Shown one piece after another: positions 5,060 through 32,246 of a DNA stretch of 34,043 nt (its first letter is position 1; each line of letters begins with the position of its first letter). The notes beneath the pieces were generated by a model that did not search any database, had not been told where the DNA came from, and saw only the letters and a list, made by a program, of their open reading frames with translations. Position numbers and translations under genes: made by a program. The DNA comes from Nemertoderma westbladi (Eukaryota; Animalia; Xenacoelomorpha): positions 1-34,043 of the forward strand of contig JAUCBJ010005283.1 in NCBI GenBank assembly GCA_032718475.1, read 5' to 3'.

Positions 5060-7485
5060 TTCTCTTGAAATGGATTGTTTTCGGCTGGAACCCAGTTCAA
5101 GAAGCGAACTGGAAAGCTATGATGGACTCATACTGGTTCCAGTGGCCACAAGTCCCAGATAGACCATATTATGTTTTGTAGGAAATAGAGAAGCTCTATA
5201 CAAGACTGTAATGCATTTACAGCAGAACAACGAACTCTGCCTTGCCACGGCATGACTACTGGTCCTCTCTGTTGCAACAGCCAAGTGTAAGATCCAGCTT
5301 CACACTACAGCTGAGCAACAGGTATGAGGTTCTTGCCTCTGAGGCGGCAGACCACTGTGAGGGCTATACTGCCTTCACAGAAGCAGTTAAGTTAGCAGCT
5401 GCAGAAACAGTTCCTGTATACCCTCGAAACAGGAAAAGGGCCCCCTGGACTGACAACAAAATTCAGAAGTGCCGAAATGACCTATATAAGGCGCAGAAAG
5501 AGTCCCGACTCGGACAGGAATGCACAGAATGCACAGGAATGACAGGAAACAGCGACCAAGAATGCAGTTAAGGCTGCATCTAGGTCCCTGAACAGGCAGT
5601 ACTCTGTTAATTTACAGGAGAAAATAAACCAACAGGTTGATGCCATCAATCATGCTGACGACAGCAGCCAATCATCCCAGGCATGGAAATCGATCAACTT
5701 GCATACTGGGCGGAAAAGCCAACCAACCACCAAGGTTAAGGCTGAATCACCAGCCGATCGCCTCAATGGTTGGAAGGCCCACTTTGAAAAGCTCCTCAAT
5801 AATGACAGGGTATTGCCTGGTAACTTTGTAGAAGTAAAAGTGTCTGAGTCTGTACTCCCAGATATTCCCATTGGTGATATCTCCTTTGCAGAAGTGAAGG
5901 CTGCTGCAAAGAGCATTAAGACCAATCGTGCCAGTGGAATAGATGGTGTTCCCCCTGAGGTCTTTAAAATACCTGAGTGTTTAAAGCTCATCTATCCCAT
6001 CACAGTAGACATGTACAGAACAACAAGAGTCCCACAAGAAATAAAAACAAATAAGTTGGTGTCAGTTCCCAAGAAGGGCAACCTAACACTCTATGGTTCT
6101 TTTCGGGGAATCTCATTGTTCCCGATTGCTGCAAAGCTATACAATAGAATTCTATTAAATCGCATCAGGGATCCCATTGGGAGACTGCTCCGTGTAAATC
6201 AGAATGGGTTCCATAAAGGTCGTGGGACCATGGAGCCCATTTTGGCACTTAGAAGGATAATTGAAGAGTTATCAAAAAAGAAAGACAGGCATCTGGCTGT
6301 TATCTTTGTTGACTTCTTCAAGGCCTTTGATTCAGTCTCTCGCTCACGTATGTTCTGCACACTTTCATTATATAGGATTCCTGATGAACTTATTGCAGCA
6401 ATCAGATCAGTATACGATGGTTCGACAACATTTATGTCTACTCTTGATGGTGACACAGAACCATTTGAAGTATTATGGGGAGTCCTCAAAGCAGACACAC
6501 TTGTGCCATTCTTGTTCATAATTGTGGTTGACTATGTTCTACGCATGTCCTTAGATCATCATAATGATGATGAGGTAATGGTAACTCCACCTACTGGCTC
6601 CAGAAGTCGAGGAAATTATGCCAAGTACCTAACTGATCTAGACTTTGCTGATGACTTAGGAGTACTCTCATAATCACTAGAAGGAACCCACTGGCCCCTC
6701 AGCTCATTAGAACAGGCTGCTTCTAGTGTTGGTATTTTTATTAAGTCCAAAAGGACCAAAATTTTGACAGTTAACTTTGAAAGACCTCAGCACGTCTCTG
6801 ACCGGATGAGCATAAGCTCAAAGGATGGTATGCTTGAGCATGTGGACGACTTCTGTTACCTGGGATCATGGATCCGGAAGTCGGAAGGACCTTCGAACAT
6901 GTAAGGAAAAGGCATGGGCACGGGCATGGAAAGCCTTGAATAGTCTTTCCAGGATTTGCAAGTCACAGAGAATTAATCGGAAACTTAAGGTCCGATTATT
7001 TAGAGCAGCAGTAGTTCCAGTACTCCTCTATGTGAGTCCATGCTGGACTTTAACTGCTGAGGACACCAAATCTCTGGATGGCACATTCACAAGAATGCTA
7101 CGCCGAGTTCATTGTGCCAAGTACAATGCACACATCTCCAACCAGACACTATATAACATTGGAGGTGTCTCATTGGTTCCCCCAAGCTTGACACTAGAAC
7201 AAAATCGCCTCCGCTTTGCAGGACATTGCTTTCGCCGTGAGGACCAGCCAGTACATAATCTTGTGCTTTGGCAGCCCCATGGAGTGAATAAGCATGGTGG
7301 ACAGCCCATGACCCTCTTGAGACGCATCTTAAAGGACACTGGCTTTGAAGATGCGGATGATCTAGCCAATGTCATGGGTGATAGGAAGCTGTGGCGGCGC
7401 AATTTTGTCGACAAGCCAGCACAGCATTCTTAAAAATGCAGCTGTAATGCAGCATAAAAAAACCTAGTAGTAGCTAGAAGTAGTA
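5060..7485 (+). mobile_element. Degenerate RTE-clade LINE, family A copy 2 (endonuclease C-terminus + RT; stops and frameshifts)
   Basis: 5064-5225 reads LENGLFSAGTQFKKRTGKL*WTHTGSSGHKSQIDHIMFCRK*RSSIQDCNAF (APE remnant). RT ORF 5699-6673 ends at a premature TAA where copy 1 has GAA. The C-terminus resumes in another frame to 7433. Degenerate TAG tail at ~7465-7485. Clearly >90% identical to copy 1 by eye. Confidence 0.95.
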
Positions 7486-8193
7486 TGTGATGTTTGTTGG
7501 TATCAATTCAAATTCCTCCATAAGATTTCCATTCTCCTGCAGTAAGTACCCATTTATATATATTTTAACTGGTGTTAGGCCAATAGGTGTAATCCTTGAT
7601 GTCTTCGGGAACAACTTGCTCATTCAGGACACCAACAATGACTGTGACATTGTTAATAACTCTGAACCCATATTGTTTTAATCTTTGTGTGCAAGTGCCC
7701 TCCATCGAATCATTACAAAATCTCAAAAAACATTTACAAATTTTATTGTTGAAACCTTCGACATCAGGACCCCTGACTACTGAAGGCGAAAAAGGTTGAC
7801 AAAAAGGTAGGAAGAGCAAGTTGACACATCCTTAGCTAGTTGATAACTCGTGCGTGGTTTCGACCTTAGCTAGTTGGAATCGCTAGCAATTACTGATGAA
7901 CACTGGCACTTAGAGGATTTGCACTGAAATCAATGTTTTCTGACATAAAATGTTCACATTCATATCTGATACAAACGTAAATCCTAACTTTGGAGATATA
8001 TGAAATATAAAATAAATTGCAATTGTTTATTAATTTTATTCAAGTATATTTTATAAAGTTGTCATACAATTAATATTAATTTTTAAATAACGTTTATAAT
8101 TGTAATATATTTCCCTCCCAGTATATCATTGAATTTATTTTATTGAATATTGACTATCTATTGAATTGATTCTTATATTATTAGTTATCCACA

Positions 8194-11100
8194 ATGGAAT
8201 ATTTGGAACATCCTTACCGAATAACAAGAAACGGACGTAAAATCTGCCTCATCGTCAATATCACTAAATATTTAAAAACTACAGACGATAGATCCAAAGG
8301 TTCTATACCTGATGTCGAACATGTCAAGAAAGTATTTGGTGACCAGCTTCACTGTGAGATTGTGGAATTTAAACCCGAAAACAACGGTTTTATAACACGT
8401 GATCATTTAGTTTCAGGAATGACCAGTTTTCGTAACAATGATTGTTTGAAGGATATTGAATGCCTATTCGTTTTTTTAATGAGTCACGGTCGTAGAGGTT
8501 TACTCACTTGTTCAGACCAAGAACAGGTTCCCATACGAGCAATTATTAACTTATTTTCAAATGACTGCCTTTCTCTAAGGTTACCGGTAGCAAAACCTCG
8601 AATATTTTTTGTAGAAGCTTGTCAATCAAATGTTGGAAACTACGATGAAGTTGATATGGATATAAATGGTCTTAAATTCAATCACATTGCATTGGCTATG
8701 GGTTGCAGCCCAGGCGAAACACTGCCACTATACAATGACCAAGGTTCCCTTTTTATAAGTACGGTTTGCGAAACCATAAGTTATATGATACAAAACCATA
8801 AACGTGGAGAAATTAAGACATTATTTGCGAAGCTAAAATCAGAACCATTATTGTACGGTCAAGAAGGTCAAGTGATGAATCCACGAGTGACTGACAATTT
8901 ACTGCAAAACTTATACTTTATCAATTTTGTGCAGAGTGTTTCCAAGTTTCGAATTGACAGTTTGTGTGAGGTACACTTTAATGGAGCTGAAAAATACCTG
9001 AAATGTGGAATTAATGGGATTGGCATTTTTGAGAAATCAACAGAAGACGTTTTGCAACTACCAATCCCATCTCACCAAGGATTAATTACGAGTTGCGCGT
9101 TGTCGCAAAGTAATAATAGAGTAGCAGGATGTTCACAGAATGGCGGTGTAGTTATCTGGGACATCGGTTGTTATCCACCGACAATATTGTATGACATAAC
9201 GCATTCACAAATAAATATGAATATGGAGAATGAAAACCTAATCAATCAACCAGTACTCACCCCACGCAGAGCTGTCTTCAACCCAACCAATGATTCAATA
9301 ATTGCAACGAGTCATATTGATGGAAGCTGCACAATCATCCATCTTGCGGGTCAACATTTTTTACATATGACATGGAGATTGCACGATAATGGTGGTGTAT
9401 TTGATATTGCTTACTCCCCAGATGGTAGAAAACTGGTTTCATGTGCTGATAAATGGTTGACAATATGGAATATGGAAGGGGTGCCAATGGCTTTACCAAA
9501 AAAAATTGCAAGTAGTTTCTTTGCAACTACATCTCTTCTTTGTGTTAGATGGACACCTGATGGAAGATATATAATAACCATAAGTGAAGGCGAATTTACT
9601 GTGTATTGTTACGATATTGAAAGAAAAGAAATTGTCTGGAAGAAGCCAATAGACGCTACTCGTATTGCGATTCATGAATTTGGTGATATTTTGGCTGTTG
9701 GGGGAAGTTTGGGAATCTATCTATTGAAAACTGCTACAGGAGAACAACTTCGAAAGGTTAGTGAAGAGGAAAACGCTGCTCTCAGCGGTTTAGAGTTCCT
9801 GAGAGGCAACCTTCTCATTGGTTGGAGTATTGGGGTGGTTCTAGAATATAATATGGAAACACTATTTCTGAAAAATGAAAAGAATCCACAAGATATACTT
9901 TATCTTCAAAGTGACAGTTTTAAAGGCTATTCTTCACATCTTAATGGACAAGATTCAGAATTCAAGAGTAATCAAGGAGGATATACATATGCGGATAAAT
10001 ATGTTGTTAAAAATGATACTGTAAAAGTATATTCTACACATCCTGATCAACATGATTCCGAAAGTTTTAAAAATAGTCATGCGCATGATGATGAACACAT
10101 TAATGAAACTAATATTGTTAAAGCATATCATGCATGTAATGATGAACACAGTGATGAATGTGACTTTGCTAAAGAATATCCTATACTTGATAATGATCAT
10201 TATGCTGGAAGAGGCAATGGCACAGAATGTTTAACCCAAGATGATGATGGATGCCAAAAACAACACAGACACAGGCCCATATGGATCAACCACATGCCCC
10301 CGAAGATATCCCTCAGAGCACTTCCTAAACTTAATCAACCTGAAATTAATCTGCATAAACAAATGTTTTATGAAACTACTCGTGAAGTATTTAAATATAT
10401 GGCACCTGCAGATCCTTATATTGAAAGTGAGCATAAGACCAAATATTCTAGAGAAATTATTGGTCTGCAGGAAAATTCAAACTTACCAGACTCATACGAC
10501 CATGGTGCAGATCAGCATTTGCAATTTAATGTGCAGGAATACGATATGGATAAATTTCCTCACGGGTTTTGTTTAATAATCAATAATCATAACTTTACGA
10601 GTTTGAGCCCTGATGGCGTCATTCTAGAGGATATTGTGGGTTCTGACGAAAATGTAGCTAGAATCGATAATACATTCAAAAAGCTGGGTTACAGAGTGAT
10701 GAGGCATAACGATTTGACAGCGCACGATCTCGACAAAGTTCTATATTCCGTCTCCAAGGATCCGACCCTCAAAGACTGTAATTCATTTGTTTGTTTCGTA
10801 ATGACTCATGGAAGGGATGAGTTTCTTTATGGATGCGATGGGATACCGATTGAAATCCGTCAAGTAACGAGTCACTTTAACTCTTTACTTTGTCCTCAAT
10901 TAGCTAGGAAACCAAAGATTTTTTTTCTTGATGCAGGTATGGTGAGTGCACTTATACCAGCTATGACCAGAGTTGATAAGGATCTATTCAAAATTACACA
11001 ACGACTTGAAGAACGACCTTCACGACGTGAAGAATCACAGCACGTTGGTGATGAAAGTGACCTTCTTATTGCTCATTCGACTTCACCGGGTCACGTGTCC

Positions 11101-11331
11101 TATCAAGGGATTTACATTGAGGAGCTGTGTAACTGCATCGATAATATGGCGATGAGACATGATTTGATATCAATTCTGACTGAAGTAAATCTGAAAATTT
11201 CTAACAGAGCTTTTTCGGATCTACCAAAACAGATCCCTCTTGTAAAAACCACTTTGTCAAAACAAGTGTATTTATACAAGCATGATCAAGGGCGACCATT
11301 GACTACAAAGGAAATAGGAGGGAAAAATTGA
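8194..11331 (+). CDS. Tandem caspase protein: caspase (C14) domain - WD40 beta-propeller - acidic/His-rich linker - catalytically dead caspase domain; 1045 aa, no intron in this ORF
   Basis: N-domain (aa ~1-242): ICLIVN, FVFLMSHG (H98), KPRIFFVEACQ (C143), GSLFISTVC, LLQNLYF. WD40 blades, e.g. HQGLITSCALSQSNNRVAGCSQNGGVVIWD, HDNGGVFDIAYSPDGRKLVSCADKWLTIWN, LLCVRWTPDGRYIIT. C-domain (aa ~783-1028): YDMDKFPHGFCLIINNHNF, FVCFVMTHG (H872), CPQLARKPKIFFLDAGM (G915 in place of Cys), DLLIAHSTSPGHVSY, KQIP, TLSKQVYL. A 3.1-kb stop-free frame in AT-rich DNA. An upstream exon spliced at TAG 8182-8184 cannot be excluded. Confidence 0.9.
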   Translation: MEYLEHPYRITRNGRKICLIVNITKYLKTTDDRSKGSIPDVEHVKKVFGDQLHCEIVEFKPENNGFITRDHLVSGMTSFRNNDCLKDIECLFVFLMSHGRRGLLTCSDQEQVPIRAIINLFSNDCLSLRLPVAKPRIFFVEACQSNVGNYDEVDMDINGLKFNHIALAMGCSPGETLPLYNDQGSLFISTVCETISYMIQNHKRGEIKTLFAKLKSEPLLYGQEGQVMNPRVTDNLLQNLYFINFVQSVSKFRIDSLCEVHFNGAEKYLKCGINGIGIFEKSTEDVLQLPIPSHQGLITSCALSQSNNRVAGCSQNGGVVIWDIGCYPPTILYDITHSQINMNMENENLINQPVLTPRRAVFNPTNDSIIATSHIDGSCTIIHLAGQHFLHMTWRLHDNGGVFDIAYSPDGRKLVSCADKWLTIWNMEGVPMALPKKIASSFFATTSLLCVRWTPDGRYIITISEGEFTVYCYDIERKEIVWKKPIDATRIAIHEFGDILAVGGSLGIYLLKTATGEQLRKVSEEENAALSGLEFLRGNLLIGWSIGVVLEYNMETLFLKNEKNPQDILYLQSDSFKGYSSHLNGQDSEFKSNQGGYTYADKYVVKNDTVKVYSTHPDQHDSESFKNSHAHDDEHINETNIVKAYHACNDEHSDECDFAKEYPILDNDHYAGRGNGTECLTQDDDGCQKQHRHRPIWINHMPPKISLRALPKLNQPEINLHKQMFYETTREVFKYMAPADPYIESEHKTKYSREIIGLQENSNLPDSYDHGADQHLQFNVQEYDMDKFPHGFCLIINNHNFTSLSPDGVILEDIVGSDENVARIDNTFKKLGYRVMRHNDLTAHDLDKVLYSVSKDPTLKDCNSFVCFVMTHGRDEFLYGCDGIPIEIRQVTSHFNSLLCPQLARKPKIFFLDAGMVSALIPAMTRVDKDLFKITQRLEERPSRREESQHVGDESDLLIAHSTSPGHVSYQGIYIEELCNCIDNMAMRHDLISILTEVNLKISNRAFSDLPKQIPLVKTTLSKQVYLYKHDQGRPLTTKEIGGKN

Positions 11332-11607
11332 GGCAAATCCCCCCGACCCGCATTGTGCGTCTCATGGTCGCGCCCATTCATGATATCCTTCATGATATTA
11401 TAGACAACATGATTGGATTAATGCTTATTGTACGGCGACATAATGCTTTATGTATAATGAATTATGTTAAATGGATGATACGATGGCATATTCCTTAATA
11501 TTAATTGGAAGAGTCGGAATGATCGTAGATTTATATATATTTATATTTTATTTATATATTATTTATATATATTCGGTCTATTTATATTATTTTACGACTT
11601 TTTGCGA

Positions 11608-11613
11608 AATAAA
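11608..11613 (+). promoter_or_regulatory. Candidate polyadenylation signal of the tandem caspase gene
   Basis: AATAAA ~280 nt downstream of the stop, after an AT-rich 3' UTR-like stretch and followed by TGT-rich sequence. Confidence 0.4.
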
Positions 11614-12379
11614 CTATTGTGCATAATTATTGTGCAAGCCACAAAGTTCACGTATTCTTATCGAACTGGTATTGTTCGGGGAGGGCGGGTTAATTTTTGT
11701 AAATAATTGTAGTTATTGTCGATATGGTCGTTGTCAATTTTCACTGTCGTTACGATTTTGACATGCTAAGAAGTTTGTGATAAGTGGAATTTGTGACAAC
11801 ACCCAAAAATGGTCTCAGCCTCAGTAAAATAAAAAACAGCAGACCAGTAAAAAATGACTGCAAAGAAATTTAATAACAATAAATCGCAGACCTAAAAGTA
11901 ATTCTGCCAAGTTTCTGCTCAACATTTTGCAGGCAAATCGCAGGAAAACAGTCAAAGTCTGGAGACAACTCACAAATGTCGGGCCAACACTCAAATCATG
12001 TAAAACAAGTGTTCTACAATAAAGTTCTTCAGATAACGTGTATAGGCGATGCCTACACAACACAGTGTTGTATGTAGTTCTGTTCTTTAGTGCTGCATTG
12101 TCCAGTGTCAGCAGAGTGTATACTTTGCGAGCTTTGCATGTTTCAACCCTGTTTCAACCGCTGTCTGCATGTTGGTCTATCCGTCGCCGAATGTTTAAAT
12201 TTTAATAACAATTTCGAATGGAATTCTGAAAATAATAACTCAGAAAAAGGAAAATTTGTTTTACGTTTTTACGATTACATAATTACATGATTTTGAGTGT
12301 TGTTCTGACATTTGAAGTTTGTCCCCAGCCGTTTGCCTGTCGAAGCTTGGCAGAAATTACTATTAAGTCTGCGATCTTG

Positions 12380-13060
12380 ATTACAAACTGGTCAGATAAC
12401 TTAGTATATGAAAATACGATTGCAAATATAATCGAAAGTTCTATTGAGAAAAATTTAAAGATTAATCCTAAGAAGTCAGAGGAGCTTTGCTTCATACCTC
12501 GAAACTTACAAAAGGAGCTACTGCTTGATATTTCTGCATCACGTATTGTAATTGATGGTAAATGTGTTCCACGTCCCACAGCGGTAAAATATTTAGGTGT
12601 ATTTATTTCCCAAGATTTATCGTGGAACCAGCATGTCAATCATGTTGTTCATAAAGCTAATTACTCAGTGCGACAATTTAGCTTTATAGTTCGATTTTTA
12701 ACTGAGAGAACGGCTATATTCATTTTTAACACATATATTTTACCGATTTATACATACTGTGCTGTTGCCTGGGTACCGAATATTACTGAAAAGCTGCGGA
12801 AAAAATTACGTAGGCCGATTTCACTATTTGCCAAACATTCAAAAGTTAATAAACAGATGCTTTTGATATTGTAAATGGTTGTTATAAAGGTATTTTTAAG
12901 AAAATGGTCGATAAAATTATAGATTCAAAAGATCATCCGTTGCATAAATCGTTGTTAGCACATACCTCTAGAAATGTCTCAACTAGGAACAATTTTGCCA
13001 TATCTTACTGTCGTACTCACAATTATAGAAACTCTTTTATACCAACTGCACTGCGTTTTC
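12380..13060 (+). mobile_element. 5'-truncated CR1/L2/Rex-group LINE remnant (RT C-terminus)
   Basis: LKINPKKSEEL, VKYLGVFISQDLSWNQHV, ILPIYTYCAVAW. After a frameshift: DHPLHK (~12931) and RTHNYRNSFIPTALR (~13012-13056), a C-terminal motif typical of this LINE group. Confidence 0.85.
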
Positions 13061-15549: not shown

Positions 15550-16611
15550 AAACTGCCTGACTAGAGATAAAAATTAGGGCTAAATACAGAAGTGCAGAAT
15601 AGGGAACAAATATAAAATAATTATAAAGTTTAAATTTGCCGCCAAATATAATATATACAGTAATAATACCATCCTTTATCATAGGGTTGAGGATACTGTG
15701 TGTTTATGGTGGGGCGTAGTAGCTGAATATATGTTTTTTCTTTGAGTTTCCGATCTGCCCAATCCTTCCCTCGGGCAAGAATACTGGCTCGAAAAGGATG
15801 GGGGTGGTTGGTGTTATGTGGGTGTTTGTCTCTGTAATGGGGGTTTACATTGGTGTTGTTGGTGCCGGTTTGGGAGGTGCAGTTATGTTGGGTTTGTGTG
15901 GTGTGGGGGAGGAGGGTGGGGACTGATGGGTGGGGGTTTCCGGGTTTGATTTTTCGGATGGCATTCGAGTGCTGAGAGATCCGTCCCCTGGCTGGGCCGC
16001 AGGTTTCTCCTACGTAGTCATCGGTACACAAGTTATACTTTAAGTGGTAGATGATGTTCTTTATCGTGCAAGTCTTGATCCCATTATTACATGTATAGCA
16101 ACGGACACTCTGTGGGGCTGGGCATTTGGCCGATCTAATAAGTATGTCGCGAAGTTTCGGGCTTGAGGTGGGCACGACCCTAGTTCGGTTCCCGAGTGTG
16201 GATGCTCGTACCGCGGCCTATTTTTGGGTCTCTCCTTTTTACGTGGGTGGAGTGCTTGTTGTGTTAGTTTGGTGATAGTTTCTTTCGGCCATTCATTCCG
16301 CGCTAGGATATGTTGTACTTTGAGAATGCTTCTATTGCGCCCTTCCTTTGTATTGGAGTTCCTAATGGCTCTGTTAATAAAATTTCGCTCTGTACTGTAT
16401 AAGGTAGTGGAGGGATGGCGGCTGTTGAAATTAATGGTTACTTCGGCACTAGCTGGTTTTATATATAGTTCACAGTTAATTGTGCCTTCATTACTGATCG
16501 ATGTCCAGACATCGAGGAATGCCAGGCCGTCGTCATAGGATTTGTCTACGGTATATTTAATAGTTCGGTGGCGGCTGTTGAGGTAGTCCATAAACTGCTT
16601 CCTATAAATTG

Positions 16612-17769: not shown

Positions 17770-18685
17770 ACTGGTATGGTAATGTTGGACCTACAAAAGG
17801 CTTTCGATACTGTAGATCATGAAATTCTGCTTGGTAAGTTAGGCCTGATGGGTGTAGGTTCTATAGACTGGTTCAAGTCCTACCTGTCAGACAGAGGTCA
17901 AACTGTAGTCATTAGCAAATCGCAGTCTACTGTACAAGAGATTACCTGTGGTGTACCGCAAGGTAGCATATTAGGTCCTCTGCTTTTTGTATGCTATGTA
18001 AATGATATGATAAGTAGTATAGATCCCGATTTTAAACTCATTTTATATGCCGACGACAGTGCTCTTATTTTCTCTCATAAAGATCCTATCCATATTTCCC
18101 AAAAGTTAAGTGCAGTTCTGGAATCCTGTAATGAGTGGTTGGTTGATAATAAGCTATCCATTCACTACGGTAAGACTGAAAGTATTTTGTTTGGTTCCAA
18201 AAGAAAGTTAAAGAAGGTAAATAAGTTTGAAGTCACTAGTAATGGACATAAGATTGAAAATAAAAAGGAAGTTAAATATTTAGGCGCCACATTGGATAAC
18301 TGCTTATCAGGAGAAAGCACAGTGAAAAATATTTTCTCGAAAGTTAACAGTTGGCTTAGGTTTCTATACAGAAATAAAAATAGTTTAAACACCGACTCCC
18401 GCAAGTTACTTTGCTCTTCTTTAATACAGTGCCACATGGATTATGCGTGCTCTTCTTGGTATGAAGGCTTAACCAAACAGCTCAAATGTAAATTACAAGT
18501 AGCTCAGAATAAAGTAGTACGATTTATTAAAGACTACAAACCTAGGCACCACCTAACTCCAGATGACTTTTCTGGATCTGGACTACTTAACTTAGATAGT
18601 AGAGTTAAGCAGCTACGCCTTAACCATGTGCATAAAGTGTATAATGGTAAATGTCCCAATTACCTAAAACAAAAATTCACCCCTC
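17770..18685 (+). mobile_element. CR1/L2-group (Crack-like) LINE RT fragment, truncated at both ends
   Basis: [70 protein letters not shown]. Homology appears to end near CPNYL; the remaining ORF tail is read-through. Confidence 0.92.
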
Positions 18686-19701
18686 TTTGTACAACCCCCA
18701 TTCTGGGGACCGTTATTTCTATCGGTCGGTTTTGGGGTCGATATTGATTCCCTTATAACTTCTTTGTTCTTGGTTTAAATTAAATTACTTTGGCACCAAT
18801 AGACTCAGGAGACCATTTTACGTTTTTCTATTGTTTCAAAATTTATTAACTCTAAAGATTGCTAATTTGTTACTCATGGGTTGAAGTGGGGACCTCAAAC
18901 ATACACATTTCACTGGTGTGTTTAAGTTTTTGTCCAATCACGATCCGGTCCCCAGTGTGATTGAGCACATTTCAGGTAGAGTTTACACAATCATTAACTC
19001 TACCGAATGTTAAACATTAAACAATGTGCTGCTGTGACAGACGATATGTGATTGGATAACAAATAATGTTCTGGAATATTCTTGAGAAATAGAAAGGGTT
19101 CAATGGGAAGCCATAATCTTCAAATCCTTGAATTCGTAACTAACTCGGCAATATGATTTTGATTGCGTACTGAATGTGTGAGGAAATAATACGTAGATTT
19201 CATTTTTGCCACTAATTTTAACTACATATTTTAATATTTTTATTGCTATTTGTGATAATAATCAAAATAACCAATGAACTTGAAATAAATAATTAACTAA
19301 ACCTAAGAAACATTCATTTAATTTCGCAGTATGTAGTGCCTAACATGATGTTCGTAACATTATTACAGTCAGATAATATAGTCAAATCCTTTAATTCTGA
19401 ATTACTTAATATTATATAAGAAGAAAACAATACATGTATTATTTCGTTTCAAAAATTTATATTTTAATAAGCGATTCATTTATTTCGTACTGAATATGGA
19501 GAAAAAATGATGTTGATGTAGATTTCATTTTAGCTACCAATTCATTCCGGGGACGTCCCCGGATTGTAAATCGTCCCCGGTTTGTCGTTGTGTATTCATG
19601 CAATTGTCCCCGGTATGAATCAGGTACAACGTAATCCTGTGTAATCCGTATGTAATGTATATTTTTGAATACATATGATTGCATTGCATGAACATATTAA
19701 A

Positions 19702-20919: not shown

Positions 20920-22724
20920 ATCTCCATTAACAAGGTTGAGAAAGCTAAGGATGATCTTAAATTGGCCTACAACATCAGCCAGGAAAAGTACATACAGGAT
21001 AAAATTGAAGCAATTACAACTGCTCACATACAGCAACAATCAAGACTTACCTGGCAAACTGTAAATTAGGTATCTGGTCGGAAAAGTTGTGCAAAGGGGC
21101 GCCTAAAAGCCGATAGTCCTGAAGAACGTGTTGGGAAGTGGAAAAATCACTTCAGCAACTTGCTTGGGCAGCCACCAAACATCGAGGTCATCCCTACAAG
21201 GAAAATATATGACAAGACACTACCTATAGAAACAGGGGACTTCACACCTTCCGAACACCAAAGAAGCATTAAAAGCATGTCCAATAATAAAGCGAGTGGA
21301 TTAGACGATTTCCCAGCGGAGGTATGGAAAACCAGAGTGCTAAACAGACCATTATTTAATGTTTGCAACCGGATGTTAAAAGGGGAAAAGCCACCACCAA
21401 TTTGTACTAAAGGTCAACTAAAGCCTCTCCCCAAGAAAGGAGACCTCGGCATACCAACAAACTATCGTGGGATCTGTCTGCTTGTGGTAGCTGCCAAAAT
21501 ATACAATAAAATGATTCTTTAAGAAACTACTGCGTAAGAGCCAAAACGGATTTCGACCAAGTAGATCAACAATAGCTCAGATACTTGCACTACGGAGACT
21601 GATTGAAGGAATGAAGGGGGGGGGGGGGGGGGGGTATACCCCCCTTCAGGTAAAATTTTCAAATTATTGTTTCTTTATTTCACGTAGAGCAGAATTTAAT
21701 GAGGATTACAAATCTGAAAACCGCTTAGTGAGACCTCTTTCAGTTCTCGAGTTATCAGTGTTTTTAGCGCAGTTACTCTCACCAGATGGTGAAACTGAGT
21801 TTTTCTCAATCCTGGCTGGCGTACTGCAAGGTGACACATTAGCACCATTGCTATTTGTAATTGTGCTGGATTATGCAATGAGGACGGCCACAAATGGTGA
21901 AGATCTGGGATTCACACTTCAAGAACGCAGAAGTAGTAGATATCCGGCAACTACAGTCACATACACCGACTTTGCGGATGACATCGCCCTGCACTCTAAT
22001 ACACTAGCAGATGCACAGCTTCTACTAAATAAAGTGGAGAGGGCTGCTAAGGAGGTTGGATTGCATATAAATGCTACAAAGACCGAATTCATGACCTTTA
22101 ATGTTGATGGAAACTTGACAACCATTGATAATAATCAACTAAGGAAGGTCGATGACTTCCAGTACCTTGGATCATGGATAGAGAGTAGCAAAAAGGACAT
22201 AGAAGTTAGGAAAGCAAAGGCTTGAGTAGCTCTATCAAAAATGGATACCATCTGGAAATCAGATCTCTCCAGGCACCTGAAGACTAAGTTCTTTCGAGCC
22301 ACAGTGGAAAGTGTATTTTTATATGGGGGGAGACCTGGACACTGACTAAATCACTTGAACACCGAATTGATGGTTGCTACACTAGACTACTAAGGGAAGC
22401 CCTAAACATCAGCTGGAGACAACACATGACAAACGCCGAGCTTTATGGTACAATACCACCTGTATCAACCACCCCCCGTGAACGCAGATTAAGATCCAGT
22501 GGGCACTGCTGGCGAAGTAAAGACGAGGTCATACCAGATCTACTTATCTGGCAACCAACTCATGGAAAGCGTAGTCGTGGACGACCTGCCATAACATATA
22601 TAGATCAACTTGAAAGGGATACTGAACGTGGGAGAAACGAAATTGCGACAACTATGGAGAATCGGGAAGTCTGGAAGGATCTCATTTCCACTGTACGAGT
22701 TCGCTCGACCTAGTAGTAGTAGTG
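20920..22724 (+). mobile_element. Degenerate 5'-truncated RTE-clade LINE, family B
   Basis: KWKNHFSNLLG, KASGLDDFPAEVWK, PLPKKGDL, NYRGICL, SQNGFRP, GVLQGDTLAPLLF, DFADDIAL, FQYLGSWI, RRLRSSGHCWR, RGRPAITY. The ORF stop is the first TAG of the (TAG)n tail at 22711. Multiple stops and frameshifts. Same clade as family A but a distinct sequence. Confidence 0.93.
21616..21767. other. Foreign ~150-bp segment replacing the FxDFxKAFD region of the family B RT
   Basis: RT homology stops at LRRLIEGMK and resumes at AQLLSPDGET. The intervening DNA starts with G19-TATA-C6 and has no RT similarity. Confidence 0.75.
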
Positions 22725-24030: not shown

Positions 24031-24703
24031 GCACAATAACTGACTAATAACTAATATAAATAACAACATGCCTATGTTGTTATATTACACAACTATTCGA
24101 TATGTTTGATGTAGAGGAGTAACCCTTACTAATGAAATCAGCACATTCTAAAACCTCAGTAGCCAAACTGTAAGGCAAATTTACCACTTTTTGAAAAAAG
24201 TTCTACTTGCATTTTTGGTGCTCTAGTATCTATTAAAAAAAAATAAAAATTTTGCTTCTAATCTTGCTTTCGATTACTAATAATGAATTCAACAAAACAA
24301 AAAAGCATAGTATGGTTTAATGGTTATAGCAAAGTCTTTGAAGGGTGATGTATTTTGTGTAATTTTATCAATTCCGCAAGGTGTTGACATATGGTACGGG
24401 TGCCAAGAACTCATCATATCTCGAAAACTTTTGGAGCTATTCAATTTTTATTTGTCTCATCTGAAAGAGGACATAATTTTAGTTAGGGACAAGAACTTTC
24501 GGCGCGCTAGACATATTGTTTCAGGCGTTCTATCTAAGAGAAATAACTGGCCCACTAAATTTAGGGGCTTTGCAGCAGCAGCAGCTTTGCCATAATAAAA
24601 GCATCATTTTTCTAATGCCTGTCCTTGCATCAATTATTTGATAGCTACAGTACATCTCCCTCTGACCACAAAATATGGCTATTACAGTATTATATTCAAC
24701 ATT

Positions 24704-25933
24704 TTATACTTTAACATAAAATTTGATGTAATGAAAGTAATACGCGATAAAGAGCCACAATGTTGTACCAAACGTATTCACAGCAAGCCTATCGCCATGG
24801 GTAACGGAAGTTACCCAATCAAATGGGAATACAAATTGAAACAGTATGTGGCCCACATAGAGCAAGAAAGAGTTCCTCCCAACGAAAGAGAAAGGTGTTC
24901 CGGCCCACACATTACATACGTCGACCAGAACGTACAGGACAGAGAACACCAATAACGATATGGATGACGTAGCGAATGCGAATGACAGCGACCAAAGGTT
25001 CTTGTTGAGGGGAATCTTTCCAGAATTGGTAGAAGCACCGCATAGAATTAAAGAGAACGAAGCTAAAATAATTCCCCAGAGAATCCATCGAACCACTCGT
25101 GATTTCCATGTTGGGTAGATGTTGATGATACGGCCGGCGTGGAGTCCAAAGAAGGCGACAACGATGGTGGTGAGACATCCGAGAATCCCCTCCGGGTCGT
25201 TCGGGGTTGTTATGGCGTATATATCGGGTGCGGGATTGGCGTATAAGTGTTCCTGCGTCAGAATCGCGCGGTCTGTGTAGCTTGCCGCACCGCCTGTGCA
25301 GTTGGGGTAGCGACCTTGATCGGATAATCCCCCAGGACCGAGATAGCCAATGGGACAGCCCGGAACCGGTAACAGAAAGGTGATCGAAGTGTGGGCCACC
25401 AATAGGAGAAGGGTTATCACCCATTGTGGCCAGTAGTAGAGGACATCTCTTAGCGGGTCTATCAATCTATTATTGGTCAACTGAGTTTCCTCGACTCTTT
25501 GGTTACACCACCACCGGGGACATATAAATAAAACGATCGCACCGAGGAACAAGTAGGTTACAGCGAGACGTTGAAGTACTCCAGGGATCCTCAAACGACT
25601 GAGATTAGTTCCCCACTCTCCATTCCGTGGCATTCCTACAAAGGCGTTTAATACCACTCCTGTGCAGAACAGGATGGCTGTTCTGCACCCCACTGCGGTG
25701 CACAGAGGTAGTATAGGCCGATGGTGGGCTCCTCGGAAGGTGAAAGCCATGCTCGCACCCATAATGAACACGAAACATGGGGATACAATGTCGGCCAATG
25801 AGAGGCCGTTCCACGGAGACAGTTTAAACTGGTAGTAACCTCCGGCTCCGAGGTTGATGAATATCATCAATGTTGTCGCGATACCGCGGAATGTGTCCAG
25901 ACTTATTACCCGTAGATGATTCCGCACCTTACT
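24704..25933 (-). CDS. HGSNAT: Heparan-alpha-glucosaminide N-acetyltransferase homologue, exon 2 (multi-pass TM catalytic domain)
   Basis: SLDTFRG, MIFINLGAGGY, WNGLSLADIVSPCFVFIMG, LRIPGVLQRLA, VPGCPIGYLGPGG, NCTGGAA, DPEGILG, IPLNKNLWSLSF, GRNSFLLYVGH. Phase-0 acceptor TTGTTTGATCAG|AGT at 25933 (alternative AAG|TTG at 25945). Confidence 0.93.
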   Translation of the reverse strand, partial: SKVRNHLRVISLDTFRGIATTLMIFINLGAGGYYQFKLSPWNGLSLADIVSPCFVFIMGASMAFTFRGAHHRPILPLCTAVGCRTAILFCTGVVLNAFVGMPRNGEWGTNLSRLRIPGVLQRLAVTYLFLGAIVLFICPRWWCNQRVEETQLTNNRLIDPLRDVLYYWPQWVITLLLLVAHTSITFLLPVPGCPIGYLGPGGLSDQGRYPNCTGGAASYTDRAILTQEHLYANPAPDIYAITTPNDPEGILGCLTTIVVAFFGLHAGRIINIYPTWKSRVVRWILWGIILASFSLILCGASTNSGKIPLNKNLWSLSFAFATSSISLLVFSVLYVLVDVCNVWAGTPFSFVGRNSFLLYVGHILFQFVFPFDWVTSVTHGDRLAVNTFGTTLWLFIAYYFHYIKFYVKV

Positions 25934-26442
25934 CTGATCAAACAACTTGAATAAACCTAATTCTTATTTAGATTTTCTATGGCAGATTATGAAAATACAT
26001 TCAATAATTCAAACTATTTTATGATTATGAATAAAAATTATTTTTCATATTGTAATTTAAAATTCCTTAATTTTTTAAGAACATATTGGTCGATTAGATG
26101 AGAATAAGCAGTATAAGCCGTATTATTTGGCAAGATTTTATTATGGAGTTAAATGACTTCAAGTTTTCTTTCTACTGAAACCCAAAGGTGTGTTAGTAAT
26201 AATTACTTATATATTTACATTTTGCCATCACGCTGCACGCACATACTAGAATGGGTGTAAAAGCGAAATTGTACAAGTTGATACCAATACTTAAAAGTAG
26301 CGAAATGACATGGAGGATGCTCCAATATGATCATTCTGATAGTCTATTAAATGCAGAATATATATTTTACCCCAACTTGAGATGTTGATTTCTTAAAAAA
26401 ATACTTTAAAAAGACCCTAATAGATTTTTCAAGTTGTCTGAC

Positions 26443-27174
26443 CTGATTTGGAATATCCGGAGGACAAAACATCGATTCGTCGTATTCAGAAAATCTACTA
26501 GGATTTCCGAAACTGATACCAACAGATTGTCCAGAGCTGTTGGATTCTCCCAACTCTAAAGTGACCTTCACCTCATCGGAACGGCAACACAATCTCTTAG
26601 CGATGGGATATTTAAACCAATAAACAGACAGGGCGTAACTCATCCATAGCAACGCTACAACAGCGGACGCAACCCCTAACGCAACGTAAGGGTTGCTAGG
26701 CACCTGGCCAATAAAAAATTTACATCTGTAGCTTAATGTCCCGTTCTCATGGATACCATTCAACGATATTTCTAGTTCATAGACCCCGAGTTGATGAACT
26801 ATTTCCTTGAGAGATGGGCACAGTGGATTGTTTGTAGAGCGATTCACAACCGTTATTAGGACTGTGTAGTAACTGAAGTGAACCAGTATCGTAGAGAAGT
26901 TATCCTGTCTAAGCGATGCTACTAAAGTCTGTTTGCATTCATGACATTCAACGTACGACATGTATACATGTATATCAACCTTGACTGTAGATGTTACATT
27001 GATGAGAGCTTGATTCATTATAAGATCATCCCGAGAAAGATTAGCTTGCGATCTTCCCTTTTGTACAGGTGTCACATCATTTGAAGACATTTTAGTTACA
27101 TTTTCTTCCCTCGCCATCACAAGTAAGGGAAATAGTAACATCAATTGCAAAATTATTACTGTTGTCCTGTTCAT
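26443..27174 (-). CDS. HGSNAT: HGSNAT homologue, exon 1 (signal peptide, lumenal domain, TM1)
   Basis: Hydrophobic signal peptide MNRTTVIILQLMLLFPLLVMA, MNQALINV, ECHEC, LGVYEL, several N-x-S/T sequons, TM PYVALGVASAVVALLWMSYAL. Phase-0 donor CAG|GTCAGA at 26443. Spliced product is ~653 aa. Confidence 0.85.
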
Positions 27175-28844
27175 AATTTTTGCAAATAATTTGACTTCCC
27201 TAAACTAGACCATTTAAAGTTAGATGAAGTACACTGAGTTTTTACAAAACTACTTTAACTTAAGATTACTACCGGTACTACTTACTGTACAGTAGTAGCC
27301 TACTGTTTGTACCTGTAATAAAATTAACAATTATCACAGTTCAAAGTGCACTTATTCGGTGATACGATACCTGAATATTTTGGATACAGTTTGAGATTAA
27401 TGTTGGGTAGGATATAGGTACAAAGGTACACTAACTTATGCAACCGCTATTTACAAAAAGAACTATCATGCATTTAGCCTTACTTGTAGACCTAATTGAT
27501 ATTCCATTTTTACCCATATGAATTCAATCAATTTAAACTGTATATTAGTACAGTATATTAAAGGTTATCTTTATTGTAAAGGATATATTTTCAAATAATG
27601 TAGGCCCTTCTTGTATGATGTTTTTGATCCCGCTGCCTTTATTCCTATTCGAACTTTATCTTACTCCCTCCAGTCCATTGAACATAATATATTACAGTGC
27701 TATATTTTAATCTCCTTCCTGGACAGATAGAAGGTTATTGCCTCTACTTTGGTCGAATCAATTTTGTTCGTTTGAATTATGGAAAGAAACAGGCTACATG
27801 ACATGCTATTCTAACCAAAACAATAAACTAAAAAGCATGAATAGCAGAGGGTATATAGTACTATAGGTCAGAAAGGTTTCTATTATTTTGTATACCACGG
27901 AAGACGGAGACTCAGTAGATGAATTTGAAATTTACAATAAGTTTTCCTACTGGAGTTCTTACAGTATAACACACCCAAGGTTCCAAATTAAATTTCTTGA
28001 TATAGCAACTATTGTGTACAGAAAGCAGATGATGACGATGGGAAGATAATATGAATATTATTGTTTACAAATATATTTAGTATTAGGTGTTTGTTTACAG
28101 GAGGAAAAAATTATATGTTGGCAGAACCTTCTATCAAACCGTCTTTCCTTTCCCTTGTATGACTTCGTGACTCTTGATTTTAATTAACATCTTTCTATCA
28201 TCGACATCGGAAATAAAGCGTATTTGTTTTCCATGTACTGTACGGTAATGTACATATATTTATTTAGTTATTTCCAGTGCTCTAATTACTTTCACTTTCA
28301 CCCATTCCACAGCCGACTTACTGACAAGGATTCTGGCATTTACTGATTTACTGTATGTAACCAATGATGGTAACACCTTATTTTGAGAACCTTATTTATA
28401 TATTGTACCGTATACAACATATGATAATGAATTATTTACCTACACTTTCAATCGACTCTCAATATGTCTTATTGCAGTATTGATCTTACCCGGAATGATC
28501 GCTGCGCCACAGCTATAGGCTGACATGGTAACACAAACAGTCAGCGAGAGGAAAGGTAAACAGCATAAAGCGTACTGTACTTCTGTAACTTTATTCAACC
28601 TACAATAAATAGGCCTAGTTACCGTATGCCGTAATGCCTAAGTTTGTACTGCTGTAAGTGATATAACATATCTTTATTACAACTGTATCTGTATTACCTA
28701 CTACCGTATCTTTATTCGGCTGTTCGGTTATTAGTACAACCAACCACAACTTAATATACTGTATTACCTGTACCGGTACCGGTACTGTATTATTTAGAGT
28801 TCAAATATAAAAATGTGGTTATCGTTCATATGCGTACCTCTGGC

Positions 28845-28985
28845 AAAAGAAGCAGGTTACAGTGGTGGTGTTTTCTAACCAAAACAATGAACTAATCTCC
28901 ATTACCAGATTACTTAATTAACGGAAAGGAGCAGGTTACAGTGGTGGGCTTTTCTAACCAAAACAATAAACAATATCTCAATAAC
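28845..28985. repeat. Tandem duplication (79-bp period) of a ~50-60 bp motif; third diverged copy at ~27779-27828
   Basis: AGCAGGTTACAGTGGTGG..TTTTCTAACCAAAACAAT at 28851 and 28930. GGAAAGAAACAGGCTACA...TTCTAACCAAAACAATAAAC at 27781-27828. Confidence 0.85.
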
Positions 28986-29145
28986 ATAGGGTATTTCATA
29001 CTTATAGTCTTATTTTTGCAATACGAAAATACCAGAGGTACGCATATGAACTATAACTAAAAATGTGATTGCTGGATTGGAGGAATATTTCATCTATAAC
29101 TAACTGTATAATGTGAACATAACCCAGTAACCAAGTATAATAATA

Positions 29146-30849
29146 ATGCACGACGCCTATAGAGCAGTGCCTATTCTCGATAATCTGCCCCTCCATATCG
29201 AATCAATAAGTTGTTTCAATGGAACGTTATTGGTGGGAACTCGTCAGGGCCATTTACTGGTATACGAAGTGCGGACTGGACACGGAGGGGTACCGGTAAT
29301 CGTTAAACTAAAAAAATCGATAAAAACAATGTTCTCGAAGAAACCTTTAGTGCAAGTAGAGGCGGTACCTGAGTTTGATATAGTTGTTTGTTTGGCGGAT
29401 AACTTGGTTACAGTTCACGACCTGCAGACGTTACAAACACTGCCGACGTTACAGAGAACCAGAGGGGCTTCGTTGTTCGCATTAACGATAAACCGGACTA
29501 CTTCAGTTTCAGGAGAGGTCACGGAAGTCCTCCAACTCTGCGTCTGCATCCGTCGGAAACTGCAGATGTTTTACTGGAAGAACCGAGAGTTTCTCGAGAT
29601 GGACAGCGAAATGAGTTTACCGGACACCCCACGCGCGATGGCCTGGTGCCACGAGTCGTTGGTGATGGGGTTCCGCAGAGATTATTATCTGATGCGACGG
29701 GACGGAACCACCGAGGAACTATTCCCGACGGGCCGACAACCTGAACCGATAATAACCGCGATGGGAGCGGACCGCTTGATTCTCGCCAAAGATAATCTGA
29801 GTATCTTCGTAGATAAAGACGGACAACCGACGCAGAAGTACGCGTCTACGTGGGCCGACGTGCCGACGGGAATGGCCTACTCTCCGCCTTACATTATCGG
29901 CCTTATAGGTCGAGGAGTTGAGATACTAACGGTGGAACCCAAAGCCTCCATACAGGAAATATCCCTCCCTAAACCCAAACTGATTAGCAGTAAAGACGGT
30001 TTGATTTACGTGGCGTCGACAACCTGCGTGTGGCGACTAGTTGCCATCCCGATTACAACTCAAATTAAATCCTTACTTGCCCAGGAAAGACCCCAATTCG
30101 AGTTGGCCTTATCATTGGCCAACCTAACAGACGAAACTGAGGACGATAGACTACAAAGAGTTCACGACATTGAATCTCTATTCGCCTTCCAGCTCTTCCA
30201 AGAAGGTAAATACGAAGAGAGTTTGCGTCTCTACAGTAAACTCAACGCCGAACCCACAGCCGTTATCGGGTTGTTTACGGATCTCCTACCTAGCGAGTAT
30301 CGCACCCGTTTAGTATATCCTTCTCCCCCTAAACCTATACAATCCTCCAACATTGAGCGCGCCTATCTCTCCCTAATGGACTTCCTAACAACGAAACGCA
30401 ACTACCTCATACAGAACAAGGATTCTATAGAGGCCACAACTCACAAGAAGTTGTTCCAGATTGTCGACACAACGTTATTAAAATGTTATTTACAGACGAA
30501 CGAGGCCTTGGTGGCGCCGTTATTGCGTCTTAAAGATAACCACTGCCATATAGAGGAGTCAGAAAGAATACTAACCAGTAGGAATAAATACAGCGAGTTG
30601 ATAATTCTTTACCAGAAGAAAGGTTTACATAAGAAAGCGTTGGAGTTGCTGTTGAGACACAGCCAGCGGGCTAGTAGCCCCTTACGGGGTCACGAGATGA
30701 CAATTCGGTATCTACAGCATTTAGGGCCCCAACACATTCAACTGATTTTCGATTTCTCCGTCTGGGTATTGAATGCCCACCCTGAGGACGCCTTAAAGAT
30801 ATTTACAGACACAGAGATAGCAGAAGTTTCCAGCCTCCCTAGAGATCAG
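29146..30849 (+). CDS. VPS39: Vam6/Vps39 HOPS subunit, exon 1 (CNH domain + start of alpha-solenoid)
   Basis: MHDAY start, LLVGTRQGHLLVY, KKPLVQVE, RKLQMFYWKNREF, LFPTGRQPEP, QIVDTTLLKCYLQTNEALVAPLLRL, YSELIILYQKKGLHKKALELL. Phase-0 donor CAG|GTAAGC at 30849. Confidence 0.96.
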
Positions 30850-30874
30850 GTAAGCAAGCAATGAAAGGTCCGAC

Positions 30875-30965
30875 ATTGTCGTACGGTAGTGGTTTAATCT
30901 GTTGCCTTGAATTCGCATCTTTGGGTCCAGAGGTCGTGGGTTCGATCCCCGCAACGGGGCCATGG
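30875..30965 (+). mobile_element. tRNA-derived SINE-like head inside the VPS39 intron
   Basis: A-box-like TGGTTTAATCTG (30890-30901) and B-box GGTTCGATCCC (30939-30949). No complete cloverleaf could be folded. Confidence 0.6.
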
Positions 30966-31050
30966 AAAGTTTTTATATCATTAAATAATGCTTTAACGGC
31001 TTTTTTAAATCTTAAATGATTTCTAAATGAACACCATTTTCGATTATATT

Positions 31051-31175
31051 GAAAAATATCGAGAATAAAATATCGTTTGTAAAAATATCGAGAGAAAAAA
31101 TATCGAGAGTAAAAATATCGAGAGTAAAAATATCGAGAGTAAAAATAATATCTAGAGTAAAATTACCGAGATTAA
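31051..31175. repeat. 15-bp tandem repeat (AAAAATATCGAGAGT), ~8 copies, intronic
   Basis: Directly visible repeats. A hairpin AGCTAGTGTTTTTTCAAAAAAACTAGCT follows at ~31192-31219. Confidence 0.9.
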
Positions 31176-31358
31176 AATACATTTTTATTGTAGCTAGTGT
31201 TTTTTCAAAAAAACTAGCTATTTATTTTTTTAAATAAGAGATTCTTTATTGTAGTTTCTATGGAACTAGCTAGTGTTTCATTCCAATTTTTTCAGTCCTC
31301 GGATTTTATACGTAATCCCTAACGAACTAAAGTAACGGAGTAAAAATTTCCTTTTCAG

Positions 31359-32246
31359 GTACTTTTCTTCTTGGAAAAAAGCGCGGAGGAATTAGCTATT
31401 CCGTATCTCAAACACATAGTTTGGGTTTGCAACGAGACGGGGGCCGCATTCCACAACCGTCTGGTACATCTGTACCGTCTGCGAATACAAAGTCTCACGC
31501 AGGACTATCTGAGTTCCCTGCCGGAGGGCCAGTTACCGGCGGCAGCGGGGCGGGAAACCGGCGAACTCGGACAACTCCGACGGGAGTTACTCGTATTCCT
31601 CGAGTCCTCGACCCACTACGAACCCCAACGGCTACTCACGCACTTCCCGTTCGATTCGTTCCTAGAGGAGCGAGCCTTGTTGTTGGGTCGACTTGGTCGT
31701 CACGACCAGGCTCTCGCTATCTACACTCACCTCCTGAAGGATACCGAGAGAGCCAACCAGTACTGCGAACGCACCTACAACCAAGGAGGCAAGGAGGTTT
31801 ACGCCTCTTTACTAAAGATGTACTTACAGCCTCCAGACCCGGCCTCACTAGGCGTCCATATTGGTTCCGCCTCTTCCCGCATCCAACCCAACCTCTCTTC
31901 CGCCTTCGATGTTCTCCGCGACCACTGGCACCGTATCGATTCCTGCAGAGCCCTGGCTCTCCTTCCCTCCAACACTCCACTCGCAGATCTCGAGGAATTT
32001 CTCACGAACGTTATCGAGGAACGCAGCGTGGAACTGCGTAAGAACGGGGTTCTATGTTCTCTGTTAAAAGGTGCTAATCTACGTGCTAAAGGACACAAAG
32101 TGGAACTCGAATCGATTAAGTTTGTAGTCGATGAGGATTCCATATGTTTTATATGTAAGAAACGCATCGGCATTTCGGCTTTCTCTCGAGACCCACTAAC
32201 TAAACATTTAACTCATTATTTTTGTATGAACGATGAAAACCCGTAA
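31359..32246 (+). CDS. VPS39: Vam6/Vps39, exon 2 (clathrin repeat + C-terminal zinc finger)
   Basis: Acceptor TTTCCTTTTCAG|GTA at 31359, in frame. LAIPYLKHIV, FHNRLV, EERALLLGRLGRHDQALAIY, VYASLLKMYL, CFICKKRIG...HYFC. Spliced product is 863 aa. Confidence 0.96.
   Translation, partial: VLFFLEKSAEELAIPYLKHIVWVCNETGAAFHNRLVHLYRLRIQSLTQDYLSSLPEGQLPAAAGRETGELGQLRRELLVFLESSTHYEPQRLLTHFPFDSFLEERALLLGRLGRHDQALAIYTHLLKDTERANQYCERTYNQGGKEVYASLLKMYLQPPDPASLGVHIGSASSRIQPNLSSAFDVLRDHWHRIDSCRALALLPSNTPLADLEEFLTNVIEERSVELRKNGVLCSLLKGANLRAKGHKVELESIKFVVDEDSICFICKKRIGISAFSRDPLTKHLTHYFCMNDENP

Follow-up and report, generated by a model that had tools for sequence, protein, structure and literature searches.

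Organization of the gene and its predicted product

The question raised by this locus is whether an animal protein can unite a caspase, a WD40 propeller and a pseudocaspase in a single chain, and what kind of protease such a caspase would be. The locus lies in a stretch of 34,043 nucleotides (nt) of Nemertoderma westbladi DNA (assembly GCA_032718475.1, contig JAUCBJ010005283.1, positions 1 to 34,043, forward strand; hereafter the window) and consists of one open reading frame (ORF) of 1045 amino acids (aa), referred to below as copy A. The original prediction for this ORF was the order caspase, WD40 region, linker and second caspase, and this order was borne out by Pfam, profile and fold results. 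The ORF is a real gene, which encodes (i) a caspase domain, (ii) a predicted seven-bladed WD40 propeller, (iii) a linker and (iv) a caspase-8-like domain lacking the catalytic Cys (Table 1). A Pfam scan of the ORF detected two stretches of Peptidase_C14 (E 2e-59) as well as WD40 (E 2e-11). At the same base composition, a frame of 1045 aa would stay open by chance with a probability of ~1e-34. The start codon is preceded by A at -3 and followed by G at +4, and there are no notable DNA repeats within the ORF. A full-length AlphaFold model, built from the single sequence, was unusable (predicted local distance difference test, pLDDT, 31).

Pfam (17 families at E<=0.1) revealed no CARD, DED or ATPase domain in the ORF, and no NB-ARC or NACHT domain ahead of the propeller. 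Nor did 18 N-terminal regions taken from related caspases, used as tblastn queries, match any prodomain within the window. The predicted absence of CARD and DED holds for the ORF, but an upstream exon (see below) could add such a domain.

N-terminal caspase domain and its substrate pocket

Residues 5-243 of the N-terminal domain, the beta6 strand among them, align with the caspase profile at 99.4% probability (hhalign). All 55 PDB matches of this domain are caspases, and all 30 of its ESM Atlas matches fall into Peptidase_C14 clusters, the three shown being eukaryotic. Together with the caspase-8-like nature of the C-terminal domain, this agrees with the earlier description of both domains as animal-type. 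The same description called the first domain intact, which is correct for the dyad, H98 and C143, but not for the S1 pocket, in which all three specificity residues are replaced (S34, E141 and L179). In the aligned caspases these positions are occupied by Arg (39/41), Gln (40/41) and Arg (41/41). Their counterparts in caspase-7, Arg87, Gln184 and Arg233, bind the P1 aspartate and set the specificity for Asp (PMC4357240; here and below, statements on the literature refer to the available parts of the cited texts).

We compared this pattern with a set of 106 caspase domains cut from the fetched matches, a set that contains some duplicates and was retrieved mainly by likeness to the C-terminal domain. 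None of the 105 members without a gap lacks all three S1 residues. Dyad and pocket are complete in 83 of them, while the dyad is kept with the loss of one pocket residue in 14 and of two in 2; the 6 domains in which the dyad is absent have lost none or one of the S1 residues. The replacement of Gln by Glu with both Arg residues kept was found in 4 of the 106. The N-terminal domain carries further changes: the Gly of the QACxG motif is replaced by S145, S339 by L177, and the aromatic S2 residue by P178. An arginine, R33, adjoins the lost Arg (S34).

Paracaspases and metacaspases (C14B) are marked by MALT1 or metacaspase affinity and an acidic S1 pocket. The N-terminal domain does not show this affinity, and only one of its three S1 positions (E141) is acidic. 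In a quick tree, which placed neither caspase domain with support, the end branch of the N-terminal domain measures 3.1 substitutions per site versus 1.16 for the C-terminal domain.

Because all three Asp-binding S1 residues are lost, the N-terminal domain is probably not a conventional Asp-specific caspase. Two possibilities follow, a protease whose P1 preference is new and a second pseudoenzyme; the retention of Cys143 over a branch of 3.1 substitutions modestly favours activity.

C-terminal pseudocaspase

The best match of the C-terminal domain is caspase-8 (E 2e-31), and its identity to caspase-8 types is 30-38%. Its best matches are caspase-8/10 proteins, although its placement in the quick tree is without support. 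As anticipated, the catalytic Cys is absent: G915 stands in its position, while H872 is kept. The S1 triad has been lost here too (I814, D913 and Q971), and a short deletion follows residue 971; the canonical beta6 strand is retained. A complex prediction for the two caspase domains, which made no use of alignments, scored 0.00 and is evidence neither for nor against their pairing.

Propeller and linker

The seven or so blades expected at ~8950-9860 correspond closely to a predicted seven-bladed propeller. Its model, folded with a 25-sequence alignment, contains 27 strands and has a pLDDT of 82; the repeat hidden Markov model alone recognised 3 blades in the WD40 region. Foldseek matched the propeller to generic seven-bladed WD40 proteins. 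With such generic matches and no ATPase domain, the protein does not resemble an Apaf-1/NLR-type sensor. The following linker, foreseen as an acidic segment of ~220 aa, has about that length, but its acidity is mild (D+E content 16.8%, against 10.5-13.6% for the domains). It belongs to no family found, and had no match among the 268 proteins fetched.

Table 1. Positions of the features of copy A and its immediate surroundings in the window.
Feature	Position (nt)	Strand	Residues	Remarks
Probable 3' splice acceptor (TAG)	8182..8184	+		9 nt upstream of ATG; shown for the paralog, inferred for copy A
Single ORF, copy A	8194..11331	+	1045 aa	
N-terminal caspase-fold domain	8206..8922	+	aa 5-243	
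S1 position	8293-8295	+	S34	replaces Arg; from alignment
Dyad His	8485-8487	+	H98	kept; from alignment
S1 position	8614-8616	+	E141	replaces Gln; from alignment
Dyad Cys	8620-8622	+	C143	kept; from alignment
N-domain intersubunit linker	8623..8679	+	aa 144-162	Asp-rich; DEVD at aa 151-154 in copy A
S1 position	8728-8730	+	L179	replaces Arg; from alignment
Predicted seven-bladed WD40 propeller	8962..9852	+	aa ~257-553	~20-residue loop after blade 2
Linker	9853..10533	+	~227 aa, aa ~554-780	DxxD motifs at aa 618, 654 and 766
C-terminal caspase-8/10-like pseudocaspase	10534..11277	+	aa 781-1028	
Candidate polyadenylation signal (AATAAA)	11608..11613	+		first after the stop; from sequence only

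Gene copies and transcription

The stretch, or part of it, is present in four public sequencing runs, X1-X4. X1, X2 and X3 are DNA runs from two studies. X4 is taken to be RNA, because it contains a GT..AG joint at 30845-31355 (an intron of the Vps39 gene of the window) and covers mainly exons, against the run type guessed by the tool, which was DNA.

Over the caspase and propeller parts, X1-X3 contain two sequences that are ~92% identical, copy A and a copy B. The comparison marks copy B as a paralog, so that the gene would have at least one paralog at ~92% identity. Alleles as the source of copy B were rejected, as a single haplotype is present in each of X1, X2 and X3 across a 4.3-kb region of an HGSNAT-like gene, an argument that possible hemizygosity of this region would weaken. 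Further copies over the pseudocaspase were seen in X3, e.g. at 10622-10815 with 7 differences. The sequence of copy A is identical in the DNA runs of the two studies. Contigs free of differences from it reach from the last part of the propeller across the pseudocaspase (9805-12200 in X1 and 9823-11191 in X2), and others, at 8741-8980 in both X1 and X2, join the caspase to the propeller.

In X4, a B-like contig matching 8185-9281 with 95 differences carries caspase and propeller together; a copy of paralog B is transcribed across both. Another B-like contig, matching 9582-10128 with 63 differences, continues into 1116 letters unlike copy A. The X4 match begins exactly at 8185, directly behind the TAG listed in Table 1, and is preceded by 200 further unmatched letters, whereas the paralog DNA in X1-X3 matches back to ~8090-8100. 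This discrepancy points to an upstream exon of at least 200 nt, which may be untranslated or code for a prodomain, with 8184/8185 as the apparent splice junction in the paralog's transcript. None of 10 aligned X4 contigs is at least 95% like copy A, but parts of the ORF are uncovered and this is not evidence of silence. A contig of low depth (3.7; weak) lies over the start of a pseudocaspase copy.

A separate X4 contig, with a depth of 1347, matches 69 nt (10786-10854) around the His motif of the pseudocaspase, and its flank reads as another caspase. The probable source is a conventional, highly expressed caspase of N. westbladi itself.

Divergence between the two copies

The dN/dS comparison proposed for this gene was made between copies A and B on the differences listed (40 of 235, with 12 of 19 indels). 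The ratio of non-synonymous to synonymous differences per site (pN/pS) refers to codons 85-242, the differences at 8217 and 8403 (2 of the 40) having been left out of the count. This region holds 30 non-synonymous and 8 synonymous differences (pN/pS 1.0); a ratio (omega) of 0.2 was rejected (P 5e-6), and one of 0.5 marginally so (P 0.045). The reading frame was mostly kept: 4 of the 5 indel groups listed in the ORF preserve it, and the fifth is incompletely listed. Counted by codon over all 40 differences, 29 codons are non-synonymous and 6 synonymous. The controls were mixed, with 9 of 9 differences synonymous in Vps39 exon 2 and 8 of 15 non-synonymous in HGSNAT exon 2.

Change is concentrated in the intersubunit linker, with differences at 14 of its 57 nt compared with 24 of the remaining 417 nt of codons 85-242 (Fisher P 3e-5). 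All 10 linker codons that changed specify another residue, and the paralog departs from the DEVD of copy A by E152Q and V153D. The codons of H98, E141, C143 and L179 are free of listed differences, which suggests that the state of kept dyad and lost pocket predates the duplication. An open frame with fast amino-acid change is common in immune genes. Relaxed selection after duplication gives the same ratio, and intersubunit linkers are loosely constrained anyway.

Relatives and comparison with known systems

A search with the whole protein returned 118 matches, all generic WD40 proteins, with coverage of the query reaching 31% at most. Among 1.84 billion representatives there were 19,881 matches, of which the best 150 have identities of 27-40%. 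None of 634 candidates among shorter proteins matched aa 1-330 at E<=1e-8, longer proteins lying outside this search, and none of the 268 fetched proteins showed likeness to a caspase domain as well as to the WD40 part, although a weakly scoring fusion could lie below the cut. The whole protein was also matched in the ESM Atlas to bacterial WD40 and C14-WD40 clusters, which serve as leads only. No animal caspase-WD40 or caspase-WD40-pseudocaspase protein was found in the literature covered, which included few subscription journals and excluded supplementary domain tables; no such fusion is named in the available parts of PMC8195603 and PMC10959488.

The nearest published counterpart is Caspase-X of the coral Acropora, a single chain, verified by cDNA, in which an inactive caspase domain is joined to an active one and for which beta6 pairing was modelled on cFLIP/procaspase-8 (PMC4715348). 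Caspase-X kills cells through its active domain, with a tendency to rescue by p35, and the inactive domain has a dampening effect on the killing of HeLa cells (PMC4715348); an expansion of Caspase-X is noted in PMC7783167. Both systems have two C14 domains per chain, one of them inactive, no CARD or DED, and a small family of paralogs (PMC4715348). In Caspase-X, however, the inactive domain comes first and has neither His nor Cys, and the available text describes no further domain (PMC4715348). Here the Cys-bearing domain, devoid of the S1 triad, comes first, the pseudocaspase keeps its His, and a propeller and a 227-aa linker separate the two, a comparison made by description and not by sequence. 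We would therefore call the present protein Caspase-X-like in its built-in pseudocaspase, but, with the reversed domain order and the propeller, do not class it as Caspase-X. The original prediction named no characterised animal protein of this layout. Since Caspase-X has already been described (PMC4715348), the idea of pairing a caspase and a pseudocaspase in one chain is not new, whereas the full layout with the propeller was not found among the proteins and literature covered. New features of the present protein are the inserted propeller, the reversal of domain order and the loss of the S1 pocket.

Gene models with two or three C14 domains were found in Mytilus edulis (P0129), Leptopilina (P0132), oribatid mites (P0125 and P0131) and Anabrus (P0180). 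Two of these, P0129 and P0132, have the domain without catalytic Cys in second place, as in the present protein. Unlike the present protein, the tandem-caspase models have no WD40 (0 of 26 scanned with Pfam), and their first domains keep all or most of the S1 residues. They are possibly further Caspase-X-like cases, and some may be gene-model fusions; the models are unverified. The tandem caspases of the oribatid mites have NAC or SAC motifs instead of QAC. Tandem-caspase models were seen in orthopterans too.

Caspase-8 and cFLIP-L form a heterodimer of two proteins with tandem DEDs, in which cFLIP lacks the Cys. The C-terminal domain resembles cFLIP in being caspase-8-like and Cys-less, but it belongs to an ORF without DED.

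Sensor-like fusions of animal caspases are exemplified by the TNFR-caspase and LRR-caspase of amphioxus (PMC2575513), in which the fused part is a putative sensor. These proteins keep QACXG, contain a single caspase domain and lack WD40; as WD40 fusions of amphioxus, the available text names TIR-NB-ARC-WD40 proteins (PMC2575513). In bacteria, C14/CHAT proteases fused to WD40 have been proposed as one-piece sensor-effectors, and one CHAT protease cuts after P1 Leu (10.1101/2021.06.07.447441). The WD40-protease layout is shared with these, but the caspase domains of the present protein are animal-type; judged by these domains, the likeness is convergence.

Proposed mechanism and alternative explanations

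Cleavage after aspartate and recruitment via death-fold domains are the defining traits of animal caspases. The reading that we prefer, tentatively and at somewhat less than even confidence, is that the N-terminal domain is an active protease that does not cut after Asp, tethered to the pseudocaspase through beta6 and gated by the propeller, the whole being lineage-specific. The N-terminal domain would be catalytically active with an altered P1 preference, given that its pocket was rebuilt but His-Gly and Cys persisted along a very long branch. The C-terminal pseudocaspase, which is less diverged, would serve as a built-in dimer partner; pairing in cis through beta6 is proposed because it was modelled for Caspase-X and is known for cFLIP/caspase-8, and the long linker would permit it. 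The propeller would take the place of recruitment by CARD or DED through its contact with a ligand or substrate. Since the N-terminal domain should not cleave itself at Asp, cutting of the intersubunit linker, which is Asp-rich and hypervariable, would fall to a different protease, either one of the host's caspases or one of foreign origin. The protein could then act as a relay below ordinary caspases or as bait for foreign proteases, and it is likely a fast-changing, self-regulated protease of immunity or cell death. We consider it rather doubtful, but worth stating, that this is a non-Asp animal caspase in a one-piece circuit of propeller sensor, pseudocaspase partner and bait linker, convergent on bacterial WD40 sensor-proteases and independent of CARD, DED and apoptosome.

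Several observations weigh against the preferred reading. The residues S145, L177 and P178 of the N-terminal domain fit a dead enzyme, and the retained His is not evidence of catalysis, because the Cys-less C-terminal domain keeps it too. R33 might substitute for the adjoining lost Arg. Dyad codons unchanged between the copies are expected by chance at 8% divergence, and a pN/pS of ~1.0 fits relaxed constraint as well as diversification. The C-terminal half of the paralog had no alignment at 85%. Finally, no orthologue outside N. westbladi, which would speak for long-term conservation of the fusion, was found in these searches.

Some of these points lead directly to other explanations. The main rival is that the protein is a double pseudoenzyme, its two caspase domains having little or no activity, and serves as a cFLIP-like scaffold or decoy whose C-terminal domain would dimerise with host caspase-8 in trans and which would be localised by the propeller. 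The S1 triad is indeed lost in both domains, other active-site loop residues have gone from the first, and the second is better conserved and has a canonical beta6; we nevertheless hold this to be fairly unlikely, given that Cys143 was kept along its long branch and that the 6 related domains without a dyad mostly kept their pocket, an order of loss opposite to that of the N-terminal domain. If, on the other hand, R33 or another basic residue rebuilt the S1 pocket, the protein could be an ordinary Asp-specific caspase fused to a regulator and processing itself at DEVD. The position of R33, the DEVD motif and the related domains that combine Glu with both Arg residues would allow for this, but the second, invariant Arg is Leu here, Glu in place of Gln would repel Asp, and the DEVD is not preserved in the paralog. 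We regard this explanation as quite improbable.

Two further explanations concern copy A itself. It might be a redundant duplicate that is turning into a pseudogene as selection is relaxed, with the paralog, possibly different in its C-terminal half, as the working gene. The pN/pS between the copies, the location of copy A beside LINE-type (long interspersed nuclear element) fragments and the paralog's letters in the main X4 transcript are in keeping with decay. They are opposed by the 1045 open codons (P ~0.05 for no stop under neutrality, a rough value assuming 65 substitutions on the branch of copy A), by the mostly frame-keeping indels listed, by the identity of copy A in the DNA of two studies and, weakly, by the low-depth contig over a pseudocaspase copy, and we judge such decay improbable. 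An assembly chimera of separate genes, against which the original prediction had asked for a check, is the least credible explanation, and we give it very little weight. The ORF is not covered in full by any listed contig, and copies so nearly identical might have been mis-phased, but the difference-free contigs from two studies span both the caspase-propeller and the propeller-pseudocaspase junctions. Mis-phasing would in any case leave the layout unchanged, because both copies have the caspase and the propeller.

If the preferred reading is true, this would be a naturally occurring caspase in which the S1 pocket is rebuilt, a propeller stands in for CARD or DED and a pseudocaspase is built in. 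Such a protein would indicate how extensively the scaffold can be altered, and the tethered pseudocaspase would offer a direct test of an activating versus a restraining partner. The most interesting aspect is the rebuilt pocket together with the propeller, more than the pairing of caspase and pseudocaspase. The importance of the protein is limited by the fact that the pairing idea is already in print for corals and that the gene has to date been found in a single species.

Neighbouring sequences

The window consists of animal DNA with few introns. The Vps39/Vam6 gene (29146-32246, + strand; Pfam) has a single intron visible in its coding part, the one spliced in X4, and its exon is closest to amphioxus and hemichordate proteins (only 51-53% identity), which points to a probably slowly evolving bilaterian without near relatives among the database entries. 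A two-part gene on the opposite strand (24704-27174), whose 387-aa part matched no Pfam family at E<=0.1, resembles HGSNAT (heparan-alpha-glucosaminide N-acetyltransferase). X4 covers it at 24683-25929 and 26443-27279, suggesting one intron. Over 24600-28843, X1-X3 each contain one unbroken 4.3-kb haplotype, with 0, 2 and 21 differences, respectively, which suggests very low heterozygosity within individuals; X2 and X3 differ in this region despite having the same sample code.

Two copies of a LINE-type reverse transcriptase (RT) sequence (77-1564 and ~5200-7433, + strand) are 93% identical over 1403 nt; the second is broken and lies directly upstream of the caspase gene. Further RT-like fragments were found at 12287-12874, 17776-18747 and 21277-22713, and a 176-aa ORF (16061-16591, - strand) resembles the region that comes after the reverse transcriptase in Penelope-like elements. 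Very high-copy short repeats occupy 11739-12200, 27732-27992, 28776-29036 and 30864-31385, the summed depth reaching 4e5, and one of them lies in the Vps39 intron. The segment 19675-20613 (+ strand) is a G-rich tandem repeat with a GC skew of 0.6, which contains a 312-aa ORF of ~11-residue units and is probably a minisatellite.

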